A stretch of DNA of 64,000 bases from Escherichia coli (GTDB lineage Bacteria > Pseudomonadota > Gammaproteobacteria > Enterobacterales > Enterobacteriaceae), in NCBI RefSeq assembly GCF_002854065.1, contig NZ_CP024147.1; one strand, given 5' to 3'. The translations under genes and the position numbers were made by a program. The notes under the pieces are model-generated. The model searched no databases, was not told where the DNA came from, and was given only the letters and a program-made list of their open reading frames with translations. Position 1 is the stretch's first letter; each line of letters begins with the position of its first letter. Below are positions 8,564 to 19,282 of the stretch, in pieces.

Positions 8564-9835
8564 ATGGAAGACGACTGCGACATTATTATTATTGGTGCCG
8601 GTATTGCAGGCACCGCTTGCGCGTTACGCTGCGCGCGAGCGGGTTTATCCGTTTTGTTACTGGAACGCGCTGAAATCCCCGGCAGCAAAAATCTTTCCGG
8701 CGGGCGGTTATATACCCATGCACTCGCGGAACTCCTCCCTCAATTTCATCTGACCGCGCCTCTTGAACGACGCATCACTCACGAAAGCCTTTCCCTGTTA
8801 ACGCCGGATGGCGCAACGACGTTTTCCAGCTTACAGCCCGGCGGTGAATCCTGGAGTGTATTACGTGCACGGTTCGATCCGTGGCTGGTTGCCGAAGCCG
8901 AAAAAGAAGGTGTCGAATGCATCCCTGGTGCGACGGTGGATGCACTGTATGAAGAAAACGGCAGGGTGTGTGGTGTCATTTGTGGTGACGATATTCTCCG
9001 CGCCCGTTATGTGGTGCTGGCAGAAGGTGCCAACAGCGTCCTGGCTGAACGTCACGGGTTAGTGACTCGTCCTGCTGGCGAAGCGATGGCGTTGGGGATC
9101 AAAGAAGTGCTGTCGCTGGAAACATCCGCTATTGAAGAACGTTTTCATCTGGAGAATAACGAAGGCGCAGCGTTGCTGTTCAGCGGCGGAATCTGTGATG
9201 ACTTACCCGGCGGCGCATTTCTTTATACTAATCAACAAACGCTCTCGTTAGGGATTGTTTGCCCACTCTCTTCCCTTACGCAAAGTCGTGTTCCGGCAAG
9301 CGAGCTGCTTGCTCGCTTTAAAACGCATCCGGCAGTGCGCCCGCTTATCAAAAACACGGAATCACTGGAGTATGGTGCGCATCTGGTGCCAGAAGGTGGC
9401 TTGCACAGTATGCCGGTACAATACGCCGGTAACGGCTGGCTGCTGGTGGGCGATGCGTTGCGCAGTTGCGTCAATACCGGAATTTCTGTGCGCGGCATGG
9501 ATACGGCGCTAACTGGCGCGCAGGCGGCGGCACAAACACTGATAAGCGCCTGCCAGCACCGCGAGCCGCAAAATCTGTTTCCGCTTTATCATCACAACGT
9601 AGAGCGCAGCCTACTGTGGGATGTTCTACAGCGTTATCAGCATGTTCCGGCGCTTTTGCAACGCCCGGGATGGTACCGTACGTGGCCTGCGTTAATGCAG
9701 GATATTTCCCGCGATTTATGGGATCAGGGTGATAAACCTGTTCCACCGCTGCGCCAGTTACTCTGGCGTCATTTACGTCGTCATGGCTTGTGGAATCTGG
9801 CGGGCGATGTTATCAGGAGTGTTCGATGTCTGTAG
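8564..9835 (+). CDS. ygcN: FixC-like FAD-dependent oxidoreductase (ETF-quinone oxidoreductase family)
   Basis: DIIIIGAGIAG Rossmann motif at N-terminus; start chosen at MEDDCD. Confidence 0.88.
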   Translation: MEDDCDIIIIGAGIAGTACALRCARAGLSVLLLERAEIPGSKNLSGGRLYTHALAELLPQFHLTAPLERRITHESLSLLTPDGATTFSSLQPGGESWSVLRARFDPWLVAEAEKEGVECIPGATVDALYEENGRVCGVICGDDILRARYVVLAEGANSVLAERHGLVTRPAGEAMALGIKEVLSLETSAIEERFHLENNEGAALLFSGGICDDLPGGAFLYTNQQTLSLGIVCPLSSLTQSRVPASELLARFKTHPAVRPLIKNTESLEYGAHLVPEGGLHSMPVQYAGNGWLLVGDALRSCVNTGISVRGMDTALTGAQAAAQTLISACQHREPQNLFPLYHHNVERSLLWDVLQRYQHVPALLQRPGWYRTWPALMQDISRDLWDQGDKPVPPLRQLLWRHLRRHGLWNLAGDVIRSVRCL

Positions 9836-10086
9836 CCCGTAATCTCTGGCGCGCTGCTGATGCGCCGCATATTGTTCCGGCTGACTCCGTTGAGCGCCAG
9901 ACGGCAGAACGATTAATTAACGCCTGCCCGGCAGGTCTTTTTGCGCTCACGCCGGAAGGCGACTTGCGTGTTGATTATCGCGGTTGCCTTGAGTGTGGCA
10001 CCTGCCGTTTGCTGTGCGACGAATCAACACTACAACAGTGGCGCTATCCACCTTCCGGATTCGGCATCACCTACCGCTTTGGATAA
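9826..10086 (+). CDS. ygcO: FixX-like ferredoxin, 86 aa
   Basis: CLECGTCRLLC cysteine motif; 10-nt overlap with ygcN. Confidence 0.85.
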   Translation: MSVARNLWRAADAPHIVPADSVERQTAERLINACPAGLFALTPEGDLRVDYRGCLECGTCRLLCDESTLQQWRYPPSGFGITYRFG

Positions 10087-10102: not shown

Positions 10103-10678
10103 ATGCCCCTCTTACACCTGCTCCGCCAGAATCCGGTGATTGCTGCCGTTAAAGATAATGCCAGCCTGCAACTGGCAATCCATTCTGAATGCCAATTTAT
10201 TTCCGTGTTGTACGGCAATATCTGCACCATCAGTAATATCGTTAAAAAGATTAAGAACGCCGGGAAATATGCTTTTATTCATGTTGATTTGCTGGAAGGC
10301 GCGTCAAATAAAGAAGTCGTGATTCAGTTTTTGAAACTGGTGACCGAGGCGGACGGCATTATCAGTACCAAAGCCTCAATGTTGAAAGCGGCAAGAGCGG
10401 AAGGTTTTTTCTGTATTCATCGCCTGTTTATTGTTGATTCAATTTCGTTTCACAACATTGATAAGCAAGTTGCGCAATCGAATCCGGATTGTATTGAGAT
10501 CCTGCCAGGCTGTATGCCCAAAGTGCTGGGCTGGGTGACGGAAAAAATCCGCCAACCGCTGATTGCTGGCGGGCTGGTATGCGATGAAGAAGATGCGCGT
10601 AATGCGATTAACGCGGGTGTCGTGGCGCTTTCCACCACGAATACCGGAGTCTGGACGTTAGCGAAAAAATTGCTTTGA
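10103..10678 (+). CDS. ygcP: GlpP-family putative antiterminator regulatory protein, 191 aa
   Basis: ORF translation with HVDLLEG...ILPG...IAGGL motifs resembling the B. subtilis GlpP family. Confidence 0.85.
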   Translation: MPLLHLLRQNPVIAAVKDNASLQLAIHSECQFISVLYGNICTISNIVKKIKNAGKYAFIHVDLLEGASNKEVVIQFLKLVTEADGIISTKASMLKAARAEGFFCIHRLFIVDSISFHNIDKQVAQSNPDCIEILPGCMPKVLGWVTEKIRQPLIAGGLVCDEEDARNAINAGVVALSTTNTGVWTLAKKLL

Positions 10679-10722
10679 CGGGATAATCGTAACCAATTGA
10701 ATTTGGTTTGATTTGTAGGCCG

Positions 10723-10783
10723 CACGCCACATCCGACATTCAGCGCCTGATGCGACGCTTAACACGTCTTATCAGGCCTACAG
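10723..10783. repeat. REP element pair downstream of ygcP
   Basis: TGTAGGCCGCACGCC... and ...GCCTGATGCGACGCTTAACACGTCTTATCAGGCCTACA. Confidence 0.7.
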
Positions 10784-10825
10784 GTCCCCAGTCCAGAACC
10801 GTAGGCAGGATCATCCGGCAACACG

Positions 10826-11686
10826 TTATTGGCAATCTGCGTGAATGTTTGTCACCAGTGCCTCCAGCACCACTTTCCAGTCATCAACCACGCCAACATC
10901 TGCCTGTGAAAATACCGCTGCGCTGGCGTCATGATTAATCGCCACCACAAACTTGCTATTGCGTACGCCCGCCATTAACGCTGCTGCGCCAGAAGCGCCA
11001 ACAACAATACACACCTCAGGTGCCAGCAGATGTCCGGAAATACCAATCACTTTTTCAGCATCAACGCCACCGTTCATCACTCGCGCCCGACTGTAGCCCA
11101 CTTCGGCTCCCAGCTTTTCTGCCAGCATAGCGATTTCCTGGTTATCTGCCTCTCCGCCCTGCCCCACCACCAACACCCGTCTGGCCTCAGCTAATGGGTC
11201 GCGGGTAACATTTTTCAGGTTCTCTATACTAACCAGCCAGTCCGGAAGCGCACCTGGGACTATGTTCAGTTGCTGCATACCAGAGGGCAAAGTGGCATTT
11301 TTATCTGCTCCCGCCTGGCGCGCCAGGGAAAGACATAGCGGGCGTTTTTCTGTTTGCAGCGTCGCCGTTAGCGCATTTCCCCAGTGGGATTTGCGCACGC
11401 TTACGATTGGAATCTCTAACGAAGTCACCTGGCAGATGCTTGCACCATGTAAACGCCAGGCCAGCCGAGTCGACAGTTCATCGCCAAACGTTCCCGGCGG
11501 AAAGAGAACAACGTTCGCAGGCGTTCGCTGCCACTGTTCCACCAGCGCATCCAGCACCTGTTCCACCACTACGGGCTGTGGTTCTATTTGCCAGTGCGCC
11601 AGGGTACAACCGCTGAAATCCTGCGCCGCCAGCCAGCCCGCTAATGCGGCATTCTCCTGATTTATTGTCACAATTGCGATATTCAT
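10826..11686 (-). CDS. ygcQ: Electron transfer flavoprotein alpha-subunit homologue
   Basis: ORF translation with ETF-alpha FAD-binding C-terminal region; start chosen at MNIAIV. Confidence 0.88.
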   Translation of the reverse strand: MNIAIVTINQENAALAGWLAAQDFSGCTLAHWQIEPQPVVVEQVLDALVEQWQRTPANVVLFPPGTFGDELSTRLAWRLHGASICQVTSLEIPIVSVRKSHWGNALTATLQTEKRPLCLSLARQAGADKNATLPSGMQQLNIVPGALPDWLVSIENLKNVTRDPLAEARRVLVVGQGGEADNQEIAMLAEKLGAEVGYSRARVMNGGVDAEKVIGISGHLLAPEVCIVVGASGAAALMAGVRNSKFVVAINHDASAAVFSQADVGVVDDWKVVLEALVTNIHADCQ

Positions 11687-12462
11687 GGCTGCATCCTTTG
11701 GCGTAAATAGTCCTGCCATAGCTTTTGCGCTTTTTCTGCTACCGTTTGCCCATCAATCAGCGTCGCTCCGCGTCGTTGCTCTGCTCTTGCCAGTTGCAGA
11801 CACTGCATCGCTGGCAATTCGGCAGCAACAGTTTTACGGATAATTTCCGCTTTCCCCGCAGCCATTCGCTGGCGCATTCCCGGTACTGGCAAGGCCACTT
11901 CACCGCACTGACGCACGGCAATCACCGCAGGCAAGCGAATCCGACAACAGCGCAGCCCATGTTCAGTACGCTGTTCGAGGGTGATAAACGGCGCGTCGAG
12001 AGTGAAACGCTCCACCTGGGTGAAGCATGGCCAGCCCAGCATTTCCGCCAGCAAAAATGGCGTTTGCCCATTCTGCCCTTCGCTGCTTTGGCAGCCGGTA
12101 ATTATCAGATCCAGCGGATTCTGACGCTGCCATTCGGCAATATGGCGAGCGACAAATTCCGACGCAAAGCGCAGATCTGCCGCCGTCTCCAGCAATACAG
12201 CTTCCTCAAACCCAAGAGCCATGAGATAGAGCAGCCAGTGTAACGCCCGTTCATCCCCCATGCTCAACGCGGTTAAAGACATCGGCGTACCGTTTTTTCT
12301 CTGCGCCAACAGCAGCGCGGCGGCAGCCTGTTCATCAGCACCGAGTAAACTTCGCAGTAGCGAAACATCCGGTCCGCTATTACCCTGAGCCGCCGCCTGC
12401 CACTCTTTTTCCGCCAGCATTCCGGCATCCGGTTCGGCTTTAAACGCTAACAGAATGTTCAT
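11683..12462 (-). CDS. ygcR: Electron transfer flavoprotein beta-subunit homologue
   Basis: ORF translation; 4-nt overlap with ygcQ start. Confidence 0.88.
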   Translation of the reverse strand: MNILLAFKAEPDAGMLAEKEWQAAAQGNSGPDVSLLRSLLGADEQAAAALLLAQRKNGTPMSLTALSMGDERALHWLLYLMALGFEEAVLLETAADLRFASEFVARHIAEWQRQNPLDLIITGCQSSEGQNGQTPFLLAEMLGWPCFTQVERFTLDAPFITLEQRTEHGLRCCRIRLPAVIAVRQCGEVALPVPGMRQRMAAGKAEIIRKTVAAELPAMQCLQLARAEQRRGATLIDGQTVAEKAQKLWQDYLRQRMQP

Positions 12463-13777
12463 TCGCACCTCCTACATTTCCCGCCGCCACCAGCGGGAGG
12501 GCTTTGGTTTCTGGTGCCCATAGCCAGGTCACAACAAAACCAACCAACAACACTGCCGCCAGGAGCAATAAGGTGACTTGCATTCCCCACTGCGCCAGCA
12601 CCCACGGCAGCAGGCCAGTACTTACCGCCGCCCCCAACCGACTCATGGCGGTGGCAAAACCGACACCCAGCGAGCGAATGTCAGTAGGAAAACTTTCCGC
12701 AGGCAAAATGCCCACCAGATTACTGACTGCCGAAATGGTGGTGCTGAAGAGAACAAAAAGCAGTAGCGTTAATGAACTGCCGGAAGGCAAACAGGCCATC
12801 ACTACCAGCGTTGCCGCCAGCAGCAAAAAACTTCCCAGCAAAAACTTGCGATGTGCCAGCAGGTGCGTCAGAACTAATCCCAGCAGCGCGCCCACAATTA
12901 ACAACGCATTAAGCATCAGGCTGGCAGTCAGCGCATCTTCCAGTCCAATAGTCTGGGCGATAGTTGGCAGCCAGGTATAAATCACAAACCATGGGATTAC
13001 GAGGCAGACAAAGAAGACGCTGTTAAACGCCGTGCGCCGCCAGTAGCGCAAAGAGAACAAGGTTTTGATGTGTTTATGGGTCGCCGTTGCCACTTCATCG
13101 CCCAGTAAAACATGGGGACCAAAATAGCGATGCACGATAGCGTGAGCTTCTGCAAAACGCCCCTGGCGCAGTAGCCAGCGTGGCGATTCTGGCGTTCCCC
13201 AGCGTAATAACGTAATCAACAACGCGGGCAGAGCTGCCGATGCCAGCAGCCAGCGCCAGGCCTCCGGGTTTTCGGAAATAAAGTGATGTCCGGCAATACT
13301 TGCCAACACATAGCCTACGGTCCACACCACGCTGAATGCGCCCAGCAAAATACCGCGATGGCGGCGCGGGGAAAATTCAGCCAGCAAGGTGTGACCTACT
13401 GAGTAATCGCCTCCCAGACCAATGCCGATCAAAATGCGCAGCCCAATAAGATGCTCTGGCGTGGTGGCAAAAAATTGCAAGAACGAAGCGAGCGTAATCA
13501 GCAAAAAGCTGAAGGTGAAGATTTTTTGCCGACCAATATGGTCGGAGATCCACCCAAGAACCAGGCTGCCAAGAAACAAACCAAGGAGCGCCGAGCCGCC
13601 GATCATTCCCGCCATAAACGGCGTCAGTTGCATGGCGGGCGTAAGTTGAATAATGGCGTAACCAATGACGCCGAGAACATAACCGTCGGTCAGGTGTGCG
13701 CCGAAAGTGAGCGCAGCAATTCGACAGTGAAAACGGTTAAGCGGTAAATCATCCATTCGCACCGGTGAAGTGTTCAT
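12440..13777 (-). CDS. ygcS: MFS-family transporter (sugar-porter-like)
   Basis: Multi-TM ORF; start chosen at MNTSPVRMDD; overlaps ygcR start. Confidence 0.85.
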   Translation of the reverse strand: MNTSPVRMDDLPLNRFHCRIAALTFGAHLTDGYVLGVIGYAIIQLTPAMQLTPFMAGMIGGSALLGLFLGSLVLGWISDHIGRQKIFTFSFLLITLASFLQFFATTPEHLIGLRILIGIGLGGDYSVGHTLLAEFSPRRHRGILLGAFSVVWTVGYVLASIAGHHFISENPEAWRWLLASAALPALLITLLRWGTPESPRWLLRQGRFAEAHAIVHRYFGPHVLLGDEVATATHKHIKTLFSLRYWRRTAFNSVFFVCLVIPWFVIYTWLPTIAQTIGLEDALTASLMLNALLIVGALLGLVLTHLLAHRKFLLGSFLLLAATLVVMACLPSGSSLTLLLFVLFSTTISAVSNLVGILPAESFPTDIRSLGVGFATAMSRLGAAVSTGLLPWVLAQWGMQVTLLLLAAVLLVGFVVTWLWAPETKALPLVAAGNVGGANEHSVSV

Positions 13778-13870
13778 CTTTACCCCTTCATTGTCCGGTA
13801 ATAAGAACGGCTTCTCGCCTGAGAAGCCGAAAAGGCAACGCCCCATCATCGCAGAACGCTGCCTGACACA

Positions 13871-15325
13871 TTATTTTTCAATCGGATAGATAGTACCCGT
13901 ATTCATAATGCCGTTAGGATCGAACTGCTTTTTCAGCCCTTCCAGCAACGCCCACGCGCTGCCGTGTTCCAGCTTGCTCCAGTGAACGCGATGTTTACCG
14001 ATACCGTGGTGGTGCACCATCGAACCACCGAGGCGAATGGTTTCTTCGCAAATGATTTTGTTGAGCGGATTGTGGTACTTGTCGATTTCCTCTTCCGGCT
14101 TACAGTTGACAACGTTGTAGTCGTAGACGAAGTACATGTTGGTGCCGTTCTGATAGCTATGAGAGGAGTGACCGCCCAGCATAGTGATGTCGTCGGCGTG
14201 CGGGAACTCGGTACGAATACGGTTAATAACGCTTTCGTAGATTTCGTGGATGCAGCTCCAGCAGCCGGACACTTCGGTAGTAAAGCCCATGTTGCCGGTT
14301 TTGAGGATCTGCACACGTTCGGCAGCCACTTTATCCGGTCCCCAGTTCAGGTTGTTAAACCAGGTTTCGATCAGCTTGCTGTCCACGCGTTGGCATTGCG
14401 GGTAGCGGGCAACGATTTCCGCAATCCCTTCGCCCGTCGCCTTCGCAATGCGAGGGTTACCTTCAGCCATAAAGATCAGCACGCATTTTCCGTCGGCAAA
14501 ATGGGTGAAGTGTTGGGTGCCATCTTCAGCGTCATACAAACGAGCGATCGACGGACGATACCCTTCCACCATGATTTCACGCAGGATGTTGAAGCCGGTT
14601 TTCATGTCTTCCAGGATATAGCCGTAGAAGAGGTTGTTTTCCGGGGTGAATTTAAAGATTTTCACTGTTACTTCAGTGATATAGCACAATGCACCTTCGT
14701 TGCCGATGATGATGTGACGAATGTCCGGGCCAGCCGCGCGGCGTGGCACGTTTTTAATGCGTGTGACGGTGCCATCAGCCAATACTGCTTCCAGACCAAC
14801 GACCATATCTTCGATTGCGCCGTAGAGTGTGGAGAACTGCCCGATACTGCGGGTTGCTACCAGGCCGCCCATCTGCGCCAGCGGCTTTGACTGCGGAGAA
14901 TGCCCCGTGGTGTAACCTTTTTCACGCAACGCGTTTTCCAGCACTTCCAGGGGAACGCCACATTGCGCCGTCGCCTGCATATTCTCAATATCAATATTAA
15001 TGATTTGATTCATGGCGGAGCCGTCGAGCACCACCGAGTTTTCTACAACAGTTTCCAGCCCACCTTCGGTGGCGGAAGCACCGGTACGCGGCACACCGTT
15101 AATTTTGTGCGCATTCATAAAATTCAGCACACGGGATATTTGCTCTGTGGAACCGAGTTTTACGACCGCTGCCGGAATCGGCAAAGTATAAATGCCATGA
15201 ATATCCGGAAATTTACGAAAACGGTCAATACTGTTCTTCTTTAATACTGTTTCATCGGTAATTACGCGATCTGCACCAACAATTTCCTTTAGCTGGTCGA
15301 CAATCGCTGCGCGAGATAAAGACAT
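13871..15325 (-). CDS. ygcU: FAD-linked oxidase (GlcD / alkyl-DHAP-synthase-like), 484 aa
   Basis: ORF translation with PCMH-type FAD-binding domain features. Confidence 0.9.
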   Translation of the reverse strand: MSLSRAAIVDQLKEIVGADRVITDETVLKKNSIDRFRKFPDIHGIYTLPIPAAVVKLGSTEQISRVLNFMNAHKINGVPRTGASATEGGLETVVENSVVLDGSAMNQIINIDIENMQATAQCGVPLEVLENALREKGYTTGHSPQSKPLAQMGGLVATRSIGQFSTLYGAIEDMVVGLEAVLADGTVTRIKNVPRRAAGPDIRHIIIGNEGALCYITEVTVKIFKFTPENNLFYGYILEDMKTGFNILREIMVEGYRPSIARLYDAEDGTQHFTHFADGKCVLIFMAEGNPRIAKATGEGIAEIVARYPQCQRVDSKLIETWFNNLNWGPDKVAAERVQILKTGNMGFTTEVSGCWSCIHEIYESVINRIRTEFPHADDITMLGGHSSHSYQNGTNMYFVYDYNVVNCKPEEEIDKYHNPLNKIICEETIRLGGSMVHHHGIGKHRVHWSKLEHGSAWALLEGLKKQFDPNGIMNTGTIYPIEK

Positions 15326-15394
15326 AGTAATTCCTTCCTGATAATAAAAATGGAATAATCATTAATAAGAGAAAACAGAAACCACCGTTATGGG

Positions 15395-16180
15395 TTAGCG
15401 CACTAAATAACCGCCATCAACTACTAATAAATGCCCGTTGACATAATTCGATGCCGGACTTGCGAGGAATACGGCTGCGCCCATTAAATCCTGAGTATCG
15501 CCCCAACGGTTTGCCGGAATATGATCAAGAACGCGCTGATTGGTTTCTGGATTACTACGTGTCGCCAGCGTAATATCTGTTGCATAATAGCCAGGGGCGA
15601 TACCATTTACCTGAATATTATATTGACCTAGTTCATCACAATAAGCTTTGGTGAACCCGGCAAGAGCATGTTTAGTGGCAGAATATGCAGGTGACCATTG
15701 TCCACCTAAGTAAGAGAATAATGAACAGATATTAATTATTTTACCGCTTTTCTGCGGGATCATAATTTTTGCCGCTTCATAGCTTAACTCGAATGCGGCG
15801 GTCAGGTTCACATCAATCATCGGGTCCCAGTCGGCACGACCGAAGTCCAGCACCTTATTCAGCTTACAAATACCGGCATTGTTAACCAGAATATCGACGG
15901 TACCGAAACGTTCGCAACAGGCGGCGATTATCTTCTGCGGCGCGCCTTCTGCGGTGATATCCACCTGCATGAAGTCCACCTCAACACCCTGTTTTTCAAT
16001 CATTTCCTTTGTTTCGCCGTTATCTTTGACGAAGCTAGGAATAAAGACATTTGCGCCTGCTTTGGCCAACGCCATGGCAAATGCCTGGCCTAAACCGCTA
16101 TTCCCGCCGGTAACAATTGCGGTTTTACCTTTCAGGGAGAAAAAATCCATTGAGAACGCATTGAGAGATTCGATTGACAT
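15395..16180 (-). CDS. ygcW: Short-chain dehydrogenase/reductase, 261 aa
   Basis: TGGNSGLGQAFA Rossmann motif; start at MSIESL with GGAG Shine-Dalgarno. Confidence 0.88.
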   Translation of the reverse strand: MSIESLNAFSMDFFSLKGKTAIVTGGNSGLGQAFAMALAKAGANVFIPSFVKDNGETKEMIEKQGVEVDFMQVDITAEGAPQKIIAACCERFGTVDILVNNAGICKLNKVLDFGRADWDPMIDVNLTAAFELSYEAAKIMIPQKSGKIINICSLFSYLGGQWSPAYSATKHALAGFTKAYCDELGQYNIQVNGIAPGYYATDITLATRSNPETNQRVLDHIPANRWGDTQDLMGAAVFLASPASNYVNGHLLVVDGGYLVR

Positions 16181-16204
16181 AGTTAGCTCCAATTTCCGTA
16201 AGGC

Positions 16205-16252
16205 AAAAAAAAAAGAAAGGTAACTTCCCCCGCGAGAGGGAAGTTACCTTTC
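16205..16252 (-). terminator. Intrinsic-terminator-like hairpin in the ygcW leader
   Basis: Perfect 15-bp stem GAAAGGTAACTTCCC / GGGAAGTTACCTTTC, 8-nt loop, then U10 on minus-strand RNA, ending 24 nt before the ygcW ATG. Confidence 0.55.
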
Positions 16253-16427
16253 TCATTATCTCTGGTAACTGGAGATAATTTTTAGCATAAGGGCATAACT
16301 GCTAATGTGATCGTAATCACAGTGTGATATTCGCATTATCAAATAGTTTTAAAAAGCAGAAGCGTGATTACTCTCACACAACACCTCTGCTTTCCATGTT
16401 ATTTCTTATTGCAATTACTAGAGACCT

Positions 16428-16476
16428 GAGAAAAGTAATCCACCTGAAAGGGCGGCTTACTTTTCTCTTTTTTTTG
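16428..16476 (+). terminator. Terminator-like hairpin in the yqcE leader
   Basis: 11-bp stem GAGAAAAGTAA / TTACTTTTCTC followed by T8-9, ending 24 nt before the yqcE ATG. Confidence 0.4.
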
Positions 16477-16499
16477 TCTATTACAAATGGGAATACGAT

Positions 16500-17777
16500 A
16501 TGCAACACAACTCATATCGCCGTTGGATAACCCTCGCGATAATTAGTTTTAGCGGCGGCGTTAGTTTCGACCTGGCTTATTTACGTTATATTTATCAAAT
16601 TCCCATGGCGAAATTTATGGGATTCAGCAATACCGAGATAGGCTTAATAATGAGTACCTTTGGTATTGCTGCTATTATTCTTTATGCCCCCAGCGGCGTT
16701 ATTGCCGATAAATTTTCACACCGCAAAATGATTACTTCCGCGATGATCATTACCGGATTACTGGGTCTGTTAATGGCAACGTATCCACCGCTGTGGGTAA
16801 TGCTCTGTATTCAGGTCGCCTTTGCGATAACAACGATTTTAATGCTGTGGTCGGTGTCGATTAAAGCCGCATCGTTGCTTGGCGATCATAGCGAGCAAGG
16901 GAAAATTATGGGCTGGATGGAAGGGCTGCGCGGCGTCGGTGTAATGTCGCTGGCGGTGTTTACCATGTGGGTCTTTTCTCGCTTTGCACCGGATGACAGC
17001 GCCAGCCTGAAAACGGTCATTATCATCTACAGTGTGGTTTACATCTTGTTGGGGCTTCTGTGCTGGTTTTTTGTTAGCGATAACAACAACCTGCGCAGTG
17101 CCAATAACGAAGAAAAACAGTCATTCCAGCTTAGCGATATCCTGGCCGTTTTGCGTATCAGTACCACCTGGTATTGCAGCATGGTGATTTTTGGTGTCTT
17201 CACCATCTACGCCATTCTGAGTTACTCCACCAACTATCTGACCGAAATGTACGGCATGTCGCTGGTGGCGGCGAGCTACATGGGGATTGTGATCAACAAA
17301 ATCTTCCGCGCGCTGTGCGGCCCACTTGGCGGCATAATCACCACCTACAGCAAAGTGAAATCCCCTACCCGCGTGATCCAAATCCTTTCCGTACTCGGCC
17401 TGCTGGCGTTAACTGCCCTGCTCGTCACGAACTCTAACCCGCAATCGGTCGCGATGGGGATTGGCCTGATTTTACTGCTGGGATTCACCTGTTACGCCTC
17501 ACGCGGGCTGTACTGGGCCTGCCCTGGCGAAGCGAGAACACCGTCTTACATTATGGGCACCACGGTAGGTATTTGCTCGGTGATTGGATTCCTGCCGGAT
17601 GTCTTCGTTTACCCAATTATCGGCCACTGGCAAGACACCCTGCCCGCAGCAGAAGCCTACCGCAATATGTGGCTGATGGGCATGGCGGCGCTTGCCATGG
17701 TGATTGTCTTTACCTTTTTGCTGTTCCAAAAAATTCGTACTGCTGATAGCGCCCCCGCAATGGCTAGCAGCAAGTAA
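16500..17777 (+). CDS. yqcE: MFS-family transporter, 425 aa
   Basis: ORF translation, multi-TM. Confidence 0.9.
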   Translation: MQHNSYRRWITLAIISFSGGVSFDLAYLRYIYQIPMAKFMGFSNTEIGLIMSTFGIAAIILYAPSGVIADKFSHRKMITSAMIITGLLGLLMATYPPLWVMLCIQVAFAITTILMLWSVSIKAASLLGDHSEQGKIMGWMEGLRGVGVMSLAVFTMWVFSRFAPDDSASLKTVIIIYSVVYILLGLLCWFFVSDNNNLRSANNEEKQSFQLSDILAVLRISTTWYCSMVIFGVFTIYAILSYSTNYLTEMYGMSLVAASYMGIVINKIFRALCGPLGGIITTYSKVKSPTRVIQILSVLGLLALTALLVTNSNPQSVAMGIGLILLLGFTCYASRGLYWACPGEARTPSYIMGTTVGICSVIGFLPDVFVYPIIGHWQDTLPAAEAYRNMWLMGMAALAMVIVFTFLLFQKIRTADSAPAMASSK

Positions 17778-17803
17778 GCCAGGAAAATTACAGGAGAAAA
17801 ATC

Positions 17804-19282
17804 ATGTCGAAGAAATACATCATAGGGATTGATGGCGGAAGTCAGAGCACAAAAGTGGTGATGTACGATCTGGAAGGTAACGTGGTTTGCGAAGGCAAAG
17901 GTTTATTGCAGCCGATGCACACGCCAGATGCCGATACCGCAGAACATCCTGACGACGATTTATGGGCATCATTATGTTTTGCCGGTCACGATTTGATGAG
18001 TCAGTTTGCCGGGAATAAAGAAGATATTGTCGGTATTGGTCTGGGATCCATCCGTTGCTGCCGTGCGTTATTGAAAGCCGATGGCACGCCTGCTGCGCCG
18101 TTGATTAGCTGGCAGGATGCACGCGTAACGCGTCCCTACGAACACACTAATCCTGACGTGGCCTATGTCACCTCTTTTTCGGGTTATCTGACGCATCGCT
18201 TAACCGGCGAGTTTAAAGACAATATCGCCAACTATTTTGGTCAGTGGCCGGTGGATTATAAGACCTGGGCATGGAGTGAAGATGCTGCGGTAATGGATAA
18301 GTTTAATATCCCCCGTCATATGCTGTTTGATGTGCAAATGCCTGGCACCGTCCTCGGACATATCACACCACAAGCCGCACTGGCGACACATTTCCCGGCA
18401 GGACTGCCGGTTGTTTGTACCACCAGTGATAAACCGGTAGAAGCTCTGGGGGCCGGATTACTGGATGATGAAACGGCGGTAATTTCTCTTGGCACCTACA
18501 TCGCGCTGATGATGAACGGCAAAGCACTGCCGAAAGATCCGGTGGCGTACTGGCCGATTATGTCTTCTATTCCGCAAACATTGCTGTATGAAGGTTACGG
18601 TATCCGTAAAGGCATGTGGACGGTGAGCTGGCTGCGCGACATGCTAGGCGAGTCGTTAATTCAGGATGCCAGGGCGCAGGATCTTTCACCGGAAGATTTA
18701 CTCAACAAAAAAGCTTCTTGTGTGCCGCCAGACTGTAATGGTCTGATGACGGTGCTGGACTGGCTGACCAATCCGTGGGAACCGTACAAACGCGGGATTA
18801 TGATCGGCTTTGATTCCAGCATGGATTACGCATGGATATATCGTTCGATACTGGAAAGCGTGGCGCTGACGCTGAAGAACAATTACGACAATATGTGTAA
18901 TGAAATGAATCACTTTGCGAAGCATGTGATCATTACTGGCGGCGGTTCGAACAGCGATCTGTTTATGCAGATTTTTGCCGACGTGTTCAACCTTCCGGCA
19001 CGACGTAACGCCATTAACGGTTGTGCAAGTCTGGGGGCAGCGATTAATACCGCGGTAGGTCTGGGGCTATACCCGGATTACGCAACGGCTGTCGATAAAA
19101 TGGTTCGCGTGAAAGATATCTTTATACCGATTGAGAGCAATGCCAAACGCTACGACGCGATGAATAAAGGCATTTTCAAAGACCTAACCAAACATACTGA
19201 TGTGATTCTGAAAAAATCGTATGAAGTGATGCATGGGGAATTGGGAAATGCGGATTCGATCCAGAGCTGGTCGAATGCGTAA
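17804..19282 (+). CDS. ygcE: FGGY-family carbohydrate kinase, 492 aa
   Basis: ORF translation; N-terminal IGIDGGSQSTK sugar-kinase motif. Confidence 0.9.
   Translation: MSKKYIIGIDGGSQSTKVVMYDLEGNVVCEGKGLLQPMHTPDADTAEHPDDDLWASLCFAGHDLMSQFAGNKEDIVGIGLGSIRCCRALLKADGTPAAPLISWQDARVTRPYEHTNPDVAYVTSFSGYLTHRLTGEFKDNIANYFGQWPVDYKTWAWSEDAAVMDKFNIPRHMLFDVQMPGTVLGHITPQAALATHFPAGLPVVCTTSDKPVEALGAGLLDDETAVISLGTYIALMMNGKALPKDPVAYWPIMSSIPQTLLYEGYGIRKGMWTVSWLRDMLGESLIQDARAQDLSPEDLLNKKASCVPPDCNGLMTVLDWLTNPWEPYKRGIMIGFDSSMDYAWIYRSILESVALTLKNNYDNMCNEMNHFAKHVIITGGGSNSDLFMQIFADVFNLPARRNAINGCASLGAAINTAVGLGLYPDYATAVDKMVRVKDIFIPIESNAKRYDAMNKGIFKDLTKHTDVILKKSYEVMHGELGNADSIQSWSNA

Follow-up and report, generated by a model that had tools for sequence, protein, structure and literature searches.

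Introduction

In Escherichia coli, the glp regulon is controlled by the repressor GlpR, and the classical example of leader antitermination in this species is BglG. To our knowledge, E. coli K-12 possesses very few protein-dependent antitermination switches acting at leader terminators, with BglG as the textbook case, and we know of no description of GlpP-type antitermination in this strain. The closest described system is that of Bacillus subtilis (targets glpD, glpFK and glpTQ), in which GlpP with bound glycerol-3-phosphate has been reported to overcome the terminators in the glp leaders. Here, we analyse a 64,000-nucleotide (nt) stretch of E. coli DNA (contig NZ_CP024147.1, referred to below as the window), which contains ygcP, a gene of the GlpP family, and two divergent operons, ygcWUSRQ and yqcE-ygcE, each preceded by a terminator-like hairpin. 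These hairpins belong to a conserved leader element, and what they probably represent is GlpP-family antitermination in E. coli and its relatives, directed at a previously undefined RNA target.

Two Terminators in the ygcW-yqcE Spacer

Both hairpins in the 319-base-pair (bp) spacer between ygcW and yqcE (16181-16499) are real and non-random. An earlier note, made from the sequence alone, had described two terminator-like structures there, and re-reading of the sequence bore out their coordinates, the genes they face and the spacing of 24 nt from the end of the U-run to the start codon on both sides (ygcW start codon at 16180; yqcE ATG at 16500). On the minus strand, the arms of the ygcW terminator (16254..16236 / 16231..16213) form 19 bp closed by a UCGC loop and are followed by U10 at 16214-16205. 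The perfect 15-bp stem claimed for this side (16215-16229 / 16238-16252) is present as part of the longer one, as is the U10 run, but the stem cannot be called GC-rich, with G-C pairs at only 8 of 19 positions. The yqcE terminator, on the plus strand, consists of the perfect 11-bp stem already described (16428-16438 / 16457-16467), an imperfect upper stem and a U-run that is U8 (16468-16475) rather than the U8-9 given before. The minimum free energy (MFE) is -34.7 kcal/mol for the ygcW hairpin (z = -7.2) and -22.3 kcal/mol for the yqcE hairpin (z = -4.0), values equalled by none of 200 shuffles in either case. The T-run next to each hairpin occurs only on the strand of its facing gene, so each hairpin is unidirectional. 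A terminator scan of 15000-18000 found eight sites, compared with 2.9 +/- 2.0 in shuffled sequences, and the longest stems were these two.

The ygcW and yqcE hairpins belong to a 63-66-nt leader element that is present in two copies. Their stem bases differ at one position, and the difference is compensated; the common stem base, GAGAAARGTAA...TTACYTTTCT, occurs at two places only in the 64 kb, one of them also matching on the opposite strand, and in 0 of 100 shuffles. The consensus of the whole element (alignment A1) is 5'-[A/G]UUAC[C/U]-AGAGA-N3-4-GAGAAA[A/G]GUAA[C/U]-variable upper stem/loop-UUAC[C/U]UUUCUC-U8-10.

Conservation of the Leader Element in Enterobacterales

A scan for YqcE, with one genome per species, gave 59 loci ranging from Escherichia to Pantoea, Serratia, Budvicia and Limnobaculum; ten ygc proteins were mapped onto them, and 57 complete ygcW-yqcE spacers were extracted. 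Each of these complete spacers carries both leaders; the one exception among the spacers is the collapsed 130-nt one of locus L034. A covariance model built on the leader alignment (R1; strong matches are those above 55 bits) found exactly two strong matches per locus, always in the ygcW-yqcE spacer, in the 1.2 Mb of the 59 loci, and all weaker matches there fall on the complementary strand of these hairpins. No third copy was detected by R1 upstream of ygcN/ygcP or of ygcS of the Serratia/Pantoea type, nor elsewhere in the 64-kb window or the 1.2 Mb of loci; the queD-ygcN spacer contains no terminator-like leader. The distance from the end of the U-run to the start codon is exactly 24 nt in 43 of 114 leaders and 19-36 nt in nearly all. 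The earlier note had proposed conservation at orthologous loci as a check, and the hairpins are indeed kept, with covariation, in the complete enterobacterial spacers and in five distant phyla or families.

Several spacers show rearrangements of their own. In L034 (Limnobaculum eriocheiris, L034:9871-10000), the spacer contains one hairpin, bordered by A9 and T9, and lacks both promoters and both 5' boxes; the inverted repeat may have collapsed in the assembly, or a genuine deletion may have occurred between the inverted leader copies. In L031, L032 and L058 (leaders at ~9570-9650 and ~9896-9967), the upper stems are identical between the two leaders of a genome, pointing to gene conversion from one inverted copy to the other; the upper stems of the two copies differ in Escherichia, Citrobacter and Klebsiella. 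An insertion of ~127 nt resembling an enterobacterial repetitive intergenic consensus (ERIC) is found in L007 and L009 (~9851-10000), where the distance from the yqcE terminator to the start codon is 150 nt instead of 24 and the element is intact.

Within the species, a BLAST search of 5426 E. coli genomes found the leader in 5063 of them, at a median of two places per genome, both in the ygcW-yqcE spacer and all chromosomal; among the matches listed, the element is annotated in none. These numbers bear on the possibility that the hairpins are REP-like (repetitive extragenic palindromic) or chance palindromes with no regulatory role. 'Perhaps REP-like' is the tentative class assigned in a published table to the RNAs arising from them (see below). 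Nevertheless, nearly all of the 5063 genomes have at most two matching places, within the sensitivity of BLAST, so the leader element is no dispersed repeat. Its position and orientation are conserved across phyla, the z-scores of both hairpins are far from those of random sequence, and true REP-like sequence in the ygcP-ygcQ spacer looks different. We regard this interpretation as extremely improbable. The segment 15900-16800 of the window has a best match of 95-99% identity in 5052 E. coli genomes and of at least 99% in only 21; the best match, in strain CUWW06, carries an IS1 within ygcW.

The Element Accompanies YgcP-Type Genes in Distant Bacteria

The closest YgcP relatives beyond Enterobacterales are 54-62% identical. 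Five distant loci were taken (Vibrio hannami, Clostridium sediminicola, Thalassobacillus, Fodinisporobacter and Sporomusa), and in all five the gene for the YgcP homologue adjoins genes for a short-chain dehydrogenase/reductase (SDR), an FGGY kinase, a flavin adenine dinucleotide (FAD)-dependent oxidase and a transporter, with electron transfer flavoprotein (ETF) genes in some. R1 detects the element in the leaders of these distant operons once or twice per locus, with scores of 24-65 bits, and in Fodinisporobacter the arrangement is divergent as in E. coli. The presence of the element beside the YgcP homologue in all five distant loci sampled shows that it is co-inherited with the YgcP-type gene across phyla. 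The YgcP clusters of Vibrio and Firmicutes (L062-L066) encode BCCT-family or OpuA-type ABC transporters in place of the major facilitator superfamily (MFS) transporters of E. coli, which may hint at the chemical class of the substrate.

A pattern scan of metagenomes returned mostly E. coli. Among the matches listed, 16 loci had no ygcW/ygcP match, and 14 of these gave no R1 match either and were rejected as chance pattern matches. Two divergent element copies each, at 33-44 bits, were seen at L110:3884-4158 and L121:3201-3488; next to them on these short contigs lie a distant MFS gene and a gene resembling ygcU (63-64% identity).

A Probable Alternative Helix in the 5' Part of the Leader

The first ~30 nt of the leader could adopt an alternative fold, in which the box [A/G]UUAC[C/U] would pair with [G/A]GUAA[C/U] of the terminator 5' arm and AGAGA and GAGAA would be displayed in the loop (Table 1). 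Both box-arm pairs that differ between the ygcW and yqcE copies are compensated. Across 96 leaders, AGAG of the loop is conserved in at least 90% and GAGAAA is invariant, and the loop is kept in Vibrio and in four Firmicute genera.

The two competing helices were compared by covariation. In the terminator helix (model-fitted alignment A3), 91.7% of cells are paired and 7 of 17 pairs are changed on both sides, a covariation score reached by 0 of 500 shuffles, with slid controls pairing at 54-74%. Its variation is confined to the upper stem, while the base, GAGAAAAG/CUUUUCUC, stays nearly constant from Proteobacteria to Firmicutes; this contrast points to sequence-specific recognition, beyond shape alone. 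The antiterminator (box-arm) helix is paired in 91.6% of cells, with a score likewise reached by none of 500 shuffles and slid controls at 15-54%, and its exchanges are of the G-C<->A-U (62/28) and U-A<->C-G (64/23) types. By inspection, box, 5' arm and 3' arm have changed together in L023 (GUUGCC / GGCGAC / GUCGCC, an A-U to G-C pair), and both Fodinisporobacter copies carry additional compensatory changes in the box-arm helix. The terminator leaves the C of GUAAC without a partner in 58 of 96 sequences, and the antiterminator pairs it in 90 of 95, indicating that selection holds box-arm pairing more strictly than terminator pairing at that position.

In stepwise folding, the box-arm hairpin is the MFE structure of the nascent ygcW RNA over ~29-49 nt (-6.7 kcal/mol) and of the nascent yqcE RNA over 32-48 nt (-1.4 kcal/mol). 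Once the 3' arm emerges, the terminator overtakes, with -31 kcal/mol for ygcW and -20.5 kcal/mol for yqcE, and the antiterminator loses by 15-19 kcal/mol. The default state is therefore off, and read-through needs something, such as a protein clamp, that holds the weak hairpin. A leader-peptide attenuator was rejected: only ~18 nt separate the start site from the stem, and most leaders lack the AUG that the ygcW copy has in its loop.

Promoters and Transcripts of the Two Leaders

Published data show that the terminator of the leader element works in vivo. By differential RNA sequencing (dRNA-seq), Romero et al. 2014 (PMC4681348) mapped class I start sites at RVS 2898384-2898388 and FWD 2898527-2898528 (reverse and forward strand, respectively), and reported a 73-nt RNA upstream of ygcW on the same strand (ecr2774) and a 63-nt RNA upstream of yqcE that was seen on a northern blot (ecr2775). 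With an offset of 1975 or 1976 between U00096.2 and U00096.3, the published start sites can be placed within 1 nt. Transferred through the K-12 record, they lie 0-3 nt before the boxes, and the RNAs reach the U-runs or a few nt past them; ecr2774 and ecr2775 are the same molecules as the two leaders, from box to U-run. The earlier note had suggested mapping the starts relative to the hairpins, and the published class I sites are found upstream of both and not downstream. Term-seq data of Adams et al. 2021 (PMC7815308) contain a 3' end at 2900311 (-) with 40640 reads, 38 nt before ygcW, and another at 2900556 (+) with 1557 reads, 36 nt before yqcE. Both are outside Rho-dependent regions, their intrinsic scores are 15.8 (ygcW) and 11.4 (yqcE) against a threshold of 3, and their entries note no regulatory element (PMC7815308).

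The promoters appear to be under catabolite control. Measured from the first base of the extracted leaders, the centres of the two CRP-type sites (Table 1) lie 43.5 (ygcW) and 42.5 (yqcE) nt upstream, and with the mapped starts they come near -41.5, the class II position; a CRP-type site is located 41.5-44.5 nt upstream of all 114 enterobacterial leaders. At the 16306-16321 site, CRP binds with a dissociation constant (Kd) of 1.7 nM in vitro (Footprint-seq), a chromatin immunoprecipitation (ChIP-seq) peak was recorded in enterotoxigenic E. coli (ETEC), and an earlier PhyloScan prediction exists. The yqcE-ygcE operon is on a published list as CRP-activated.

The two RNAs were published as potential novel small RNAs (sRNAs), unexplained, 'perhaps REP-like', and without a link to attenuation, YgcP or CRP (PMC4681348), and none of the published sources found interprets the start sites, short RNAs, 3' ends and CRP binding at the two leaders. 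One could see in the hairpins the constitutive terminators of genes for trans-acting sRNAs (ecr2774, ecr2775), or plain dampeners, with the operons expressed by basal read-through. The stable 63-nt and 73-nt RNAs, abundant in lysogeny broth (LB) and published as candidate sRNAs, speak for it, as does the high Term-seq read count on the ygcW side. However, the narrowly kept distance between U-run and start codon argues against free-standing sRNA genes, neither operon has any other mapped start site among those published, and the element precedes the same enzyme genes across phyla. Moreover, a conserved, covarying box complementary to the 5' arm would be superfluous for a plain terminator. We consider this explanation quite unlikely.

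YgcP and the Proposed Mechanism

The assignment of ygcP to the GlpP family, put forward in the earlier note, is confirmed by Pfam (PF04309, G3P_antiterm, E = 1.9e-62, model positions 1-173/173), and structure searches retrieve the GlpP-like entries PDB 3kts (E = 2e-27) and 1vkf (E = 1e-14). In Enterobacterales, YgcP accompanies ygcU-ygcW and yqcE-kinase at 67-99% identity, and YgcP and the element co-occur wherever the flanks are long enough to show it, including loci in which ygcN, O, Q and R are missing or retain only 30-45% identity and loci that have lost the neighbouring ETF/fix genes.

YgcP-dependent and ligand-dependent antitermination, that is, an E. coli GlpP-type system, is the best explanation of these observations, in keeping with what the earlier note had proposed, and we put its probability at roughly 70%. 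Each operon is preceded by a module composed of a class II CRP-dependent promoter with its start 0-3 nt before the box, a 63-73-nt leader and a strong intrinsic terminator. By default, the terminator forms and the short RNA is released, as the published starts, short RNAs and 3' ends show. We infer that YgcP binds the 5' hairpin, that this binding prevents termination and that a pathway metabolite switches the binding on. The metabolite-bound protein would thus stabilise the weak hairpin and keep the 5' arm from the 3' arm, allowing RNA polymerase to read into ygcW-U-S-R-Q and yqcE-ygcE. By analogy with glycerol-3-phosphate for GlpP, the most plausible candidate ligand is the phosphorylated compound made by the FGGY kinase YgcE. 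Expression would then need cyclic AMP (cAMP)-CRP plus the inducer.

YgcP might bind the leaders with another outcome, either stabilising the mRNA, as GlpP does at glpD, or favouring termination in its liganded form, like TRAP or PyrR. According to the title of a published study, GlpP has a dual role at the glpD leader, acting both in antitermination and on mRNA stability, and the sequence does not give the direction of the effect. Yet the terminator is ahead by 15-19 kcal/mol unaided and terminated RNAs dominate uninduced cells, so a termination-favouring factor would add little to a terminator that is already dominant. Such outcomes are, in our judgement, very unlikely.

A further alternative keeps the regulated attenuators but assigns the sensing to something other than YgcP: the ~30-nt element could bind a metabolite as a tiny riboswitch, or another protein, with YgcP as an enzyme or accessory. 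The conserved loop and helix could in principle make a small aptamer, PF04309 proteins resemble solved structures of their own family only, phospho-ligand binding or catalysis by YgcP is compatible with its sequence, and the literature yielded no direct evidence for YgcP-RNA binding. On the other hand, known aptamers are larger and more complex than a lone 6-7-bp hairpin with a 14-15-nt loop, and the element has no match in Rfam: at E up to 10, the region gave no gathering-score match in Rfam 15, the best being an unrelated Listeria sRNA (E = 0.11, 27.6 bits, gathering 90), and at gathering thresholds no family was found at the Vibrio, Clostridium or classical glp leaders. The constant neighbourhood of element and YgcP homologue in the distant loci and the same layout at classical GlpP targets also disfavour another sensor, which we therefore hold to be unlikely. 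Taken broadly, it is doubtful that the ~30-nt element senses the inducer itself, which would put it among the smallest riboswitch-like switches, or that the 63-73-nt RNAs act in trans, with YgcP not the (sole) effector. If either were true, the element would constitute a new cross-phylum RNA class marking an uncharacterised catabolic pathway.

Several points weigh against YgcP-dependent antitermination. YgcP is only 31% identical to the classical GlpP of the P. megaterium glpP-glpF-glpK-glpD locus, which indicates a separate subfamily with its own RNA partner, and R1 scores the classical glp leaders at only 9-19.5 bits, so that the likeness to GlpP targets is architectural and does not amount to detectable homology. 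The yqcE antiterminator is very weak by itself. The covariation counts favour the antiterminator helix but fall short of proof, as the sequences are related and independent events are few. There is no copy of the element before ygcP itself in E. coli. The Term-seq 3' ends are found inside the 3' arms (16213-16231; 16457-16467), ~4-11 nt before the U-run, a position that probably results from exonucleolytic trimming through the A-U-rich stem base; the RNA-seq-defined ends of the same RNAs do reach the U-run. Finally, we found no published work on the function of ygcP, the other ygc genes or ecr2774/ecr2775, no experiment in the literature tying YgcP to the leader RNAs and no publication that describes a YgcP antitermination mechanism.

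Features of the Locus

The coordinates are collected in Table 1. The genes are arranged in the order queD-ygcN-ygcO-ygcP (+), ygcQ-R-S-U-W (-) and yqcE-ygcE (+). The spacer between the convergent ygcP and ygcQ (10700-10800) contains REP-like palindromes, unrelated in sequence to the leader hairpins. In the Serratia/Pantoea/Erwinia type of locus (L033, L037, L044-L054; ~12700-15900), ygcP is encoded downstream of the kinase gene and in the opposite orientation, with ygcS next to it as a plus-strand gene of its own, and the ETF and fix genes are absent; no element is present upstream of this ygcS, which implies that it is controlled differently there.

Table 1. Features of the ygc locus in the window, with strand and supporting details.
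Feature	Coordinates	Strand	Details
ygcW leader RNA (published as ecr2774)	16205..16272	-	start ~16270-16272, element, terminator, U10; R1 83.7 bits
yqcE leader RNA (published as ecr2775)	16410..16475	+	start ~16410-16412, element, terminator, U8; R1 75.2 bits
5' box AGUUACC, ygcW leader	16264..16270	-	complement GGUAACU at 16248-16242; proposed 5' strand of the antiterminator helix
Putative antiterminator loop AGAGAUAAUGAGAAA, ygcW leader	16249..16263	-	two purine pentamers; proposed YgcP contact
5' box AUUACU, yqcE leader	16414..16419	+	complement AGUAAU at 16434-16439; proposed antiterminator helix
Putative antiterminator loop AGAGACCUGAGAAA, yqcE leader	16420..16433	+	sequence and leader alignment
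Terminator hairpin, ygcW leader	16213..16254	-	folding, terminator scan, covariation
Terminator hairpin, yqcE leader	16428..16467	+	sequence, folding, stem-base pattern
CRP site TGTGATCGTAATCACA	16306..16321		perfect; centre 16313.5, ~41.5-43.5 nt upstream of the ygcW leader start
CRP-like site CGTGATTACTCTCACA	16363..16378		9/10 match; centre 16370.5, ~41.5-42.5 nt upstream of the yqcE leader start
ygcP	10103..10678	+	PF04309; proposed trans-acting antiterminator
ygcW-ygcU-ygcS-ygcR-ygcQ	10826..16180	-	SDR, FAD-linked oxidase, MFS transporter, ETF beta, ETF alpha; proposed controlled operon
yqcE-ygcE	16500..19282	+	MFS transporter, FGGY-family kinase; proposed controlled operon

Significance

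If YgcP-dependent antitermination operates as proposed, the y-gene ygcP would acquire a function, the two short RNAs ecr2774 and ecr2775 and the two Term-seq 3' ends would be explained, and a two-operon regulon, ygcWUSRQ and yqcE-ygcE, would be delimited. It would also add a conserved RNA element outside Rfam that is shared by Enterobacterales, Vibrio and several Firmicute lineages. A leader-reporter fusion would offer a direct screening tool for the substrate of the pathway. The compact set of terminator, RNA tag and protein is a candidate portable induction module, for which B. subtilis GlpP with the glpD leader provides a published precedent.

Comparison with Known Systems

Among the described systems, BglG, SacY and LicT with their ribonucleic antiterminator (RAT) targets resemble the ygc leaders in the proposed logic, in which a protein would stabilise a weak hairpin overlapping the terminator 5' arm and termination would be the default. 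They differ in that control there is exerted through phosphorylation by the phosphotransferase system (PTS), whereas a small ligand is proposed here, and the RNA sequences are unrelated. A BglG-type regulator was rejected as a candidate: YgcP has no CAT or PRD domains (PF04309 is its only Pfam match), and no gene of that kind is annotated in the locus. HutP, which is reported to read XAG-rich sites, and TRAP share with the ygc leaders short repeated motifs beside or in the terminator arm and a ligand-dependent mode of RNA binding. Their folds, however, are unrelated; HutP destabilises the terminator via two sites and TRAP promotes termination, while here there are two repeats only, displayed in a hairpin loop.

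For comparison with known or presumed GlpP targets, a classical set of five leaders was assembled from B. subtilis glpD, an experimentally studied GlpP target whose 5' untranslated region is printed in PMC9604022, and from the glpF and glpD leaders of two further Bacillales, P. megaterium and Lysinibacillus; the Listeria glpP locus (L067), with no adjacent glp genes, was left out. All five contain a short box (GGUC, UGGU, GUGG) whose complement forms the start of the terminator 5' arm, then a 9-14-nt loop with two purine-rich pentamers (UGAGA...GAGGAGA, GGAGA...GGAGA, AGGAA...AGGAA) and finally the terminator, and folding of the nascent RNA predicts the box-arm hairpin as its MFE structure in 5/5. 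Their 5' ends (L068:8565-8740, L068:11128-11296, L069:6079-6288 and B. subtilis glpD) read AAGUUAAUA in four of the five and AAGUUCAUA in the fifth, and the ygc leaders start with AGUUAC, so 5'-AGUU is common to both leader types. This shared start may be part of the recognition by the protein family, or it may reflect a promoter-proximal constraint.

The likeness to the GlpP system thus extends over several levels: a PF04309 regulator, the layout of box-arm pairing, purine pentamers and terminator, several leaders per regulator, and the control of a transporter, an FGGY kinase and a FAD dehydrogenase. Both systems are additionally subject to catabolite control, through CcpA in B. subtilis and CRP here. 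A further shared feature is linkage between the regulator gene and the catabolic operons, seen for ygcP in Enterobacterales, Vibrio and four Firmicute genera. What sets the ygc system apart is an RNA whose sequence forms a class of its own (6-7-bp helix, AGAGA/GAGAA repeats), a pathway with an SDR, a GlcD-like oxidase and ETF, and a Gram-negative host in which two divergent copies of the element are accommodated in a single 319-bp spacer.

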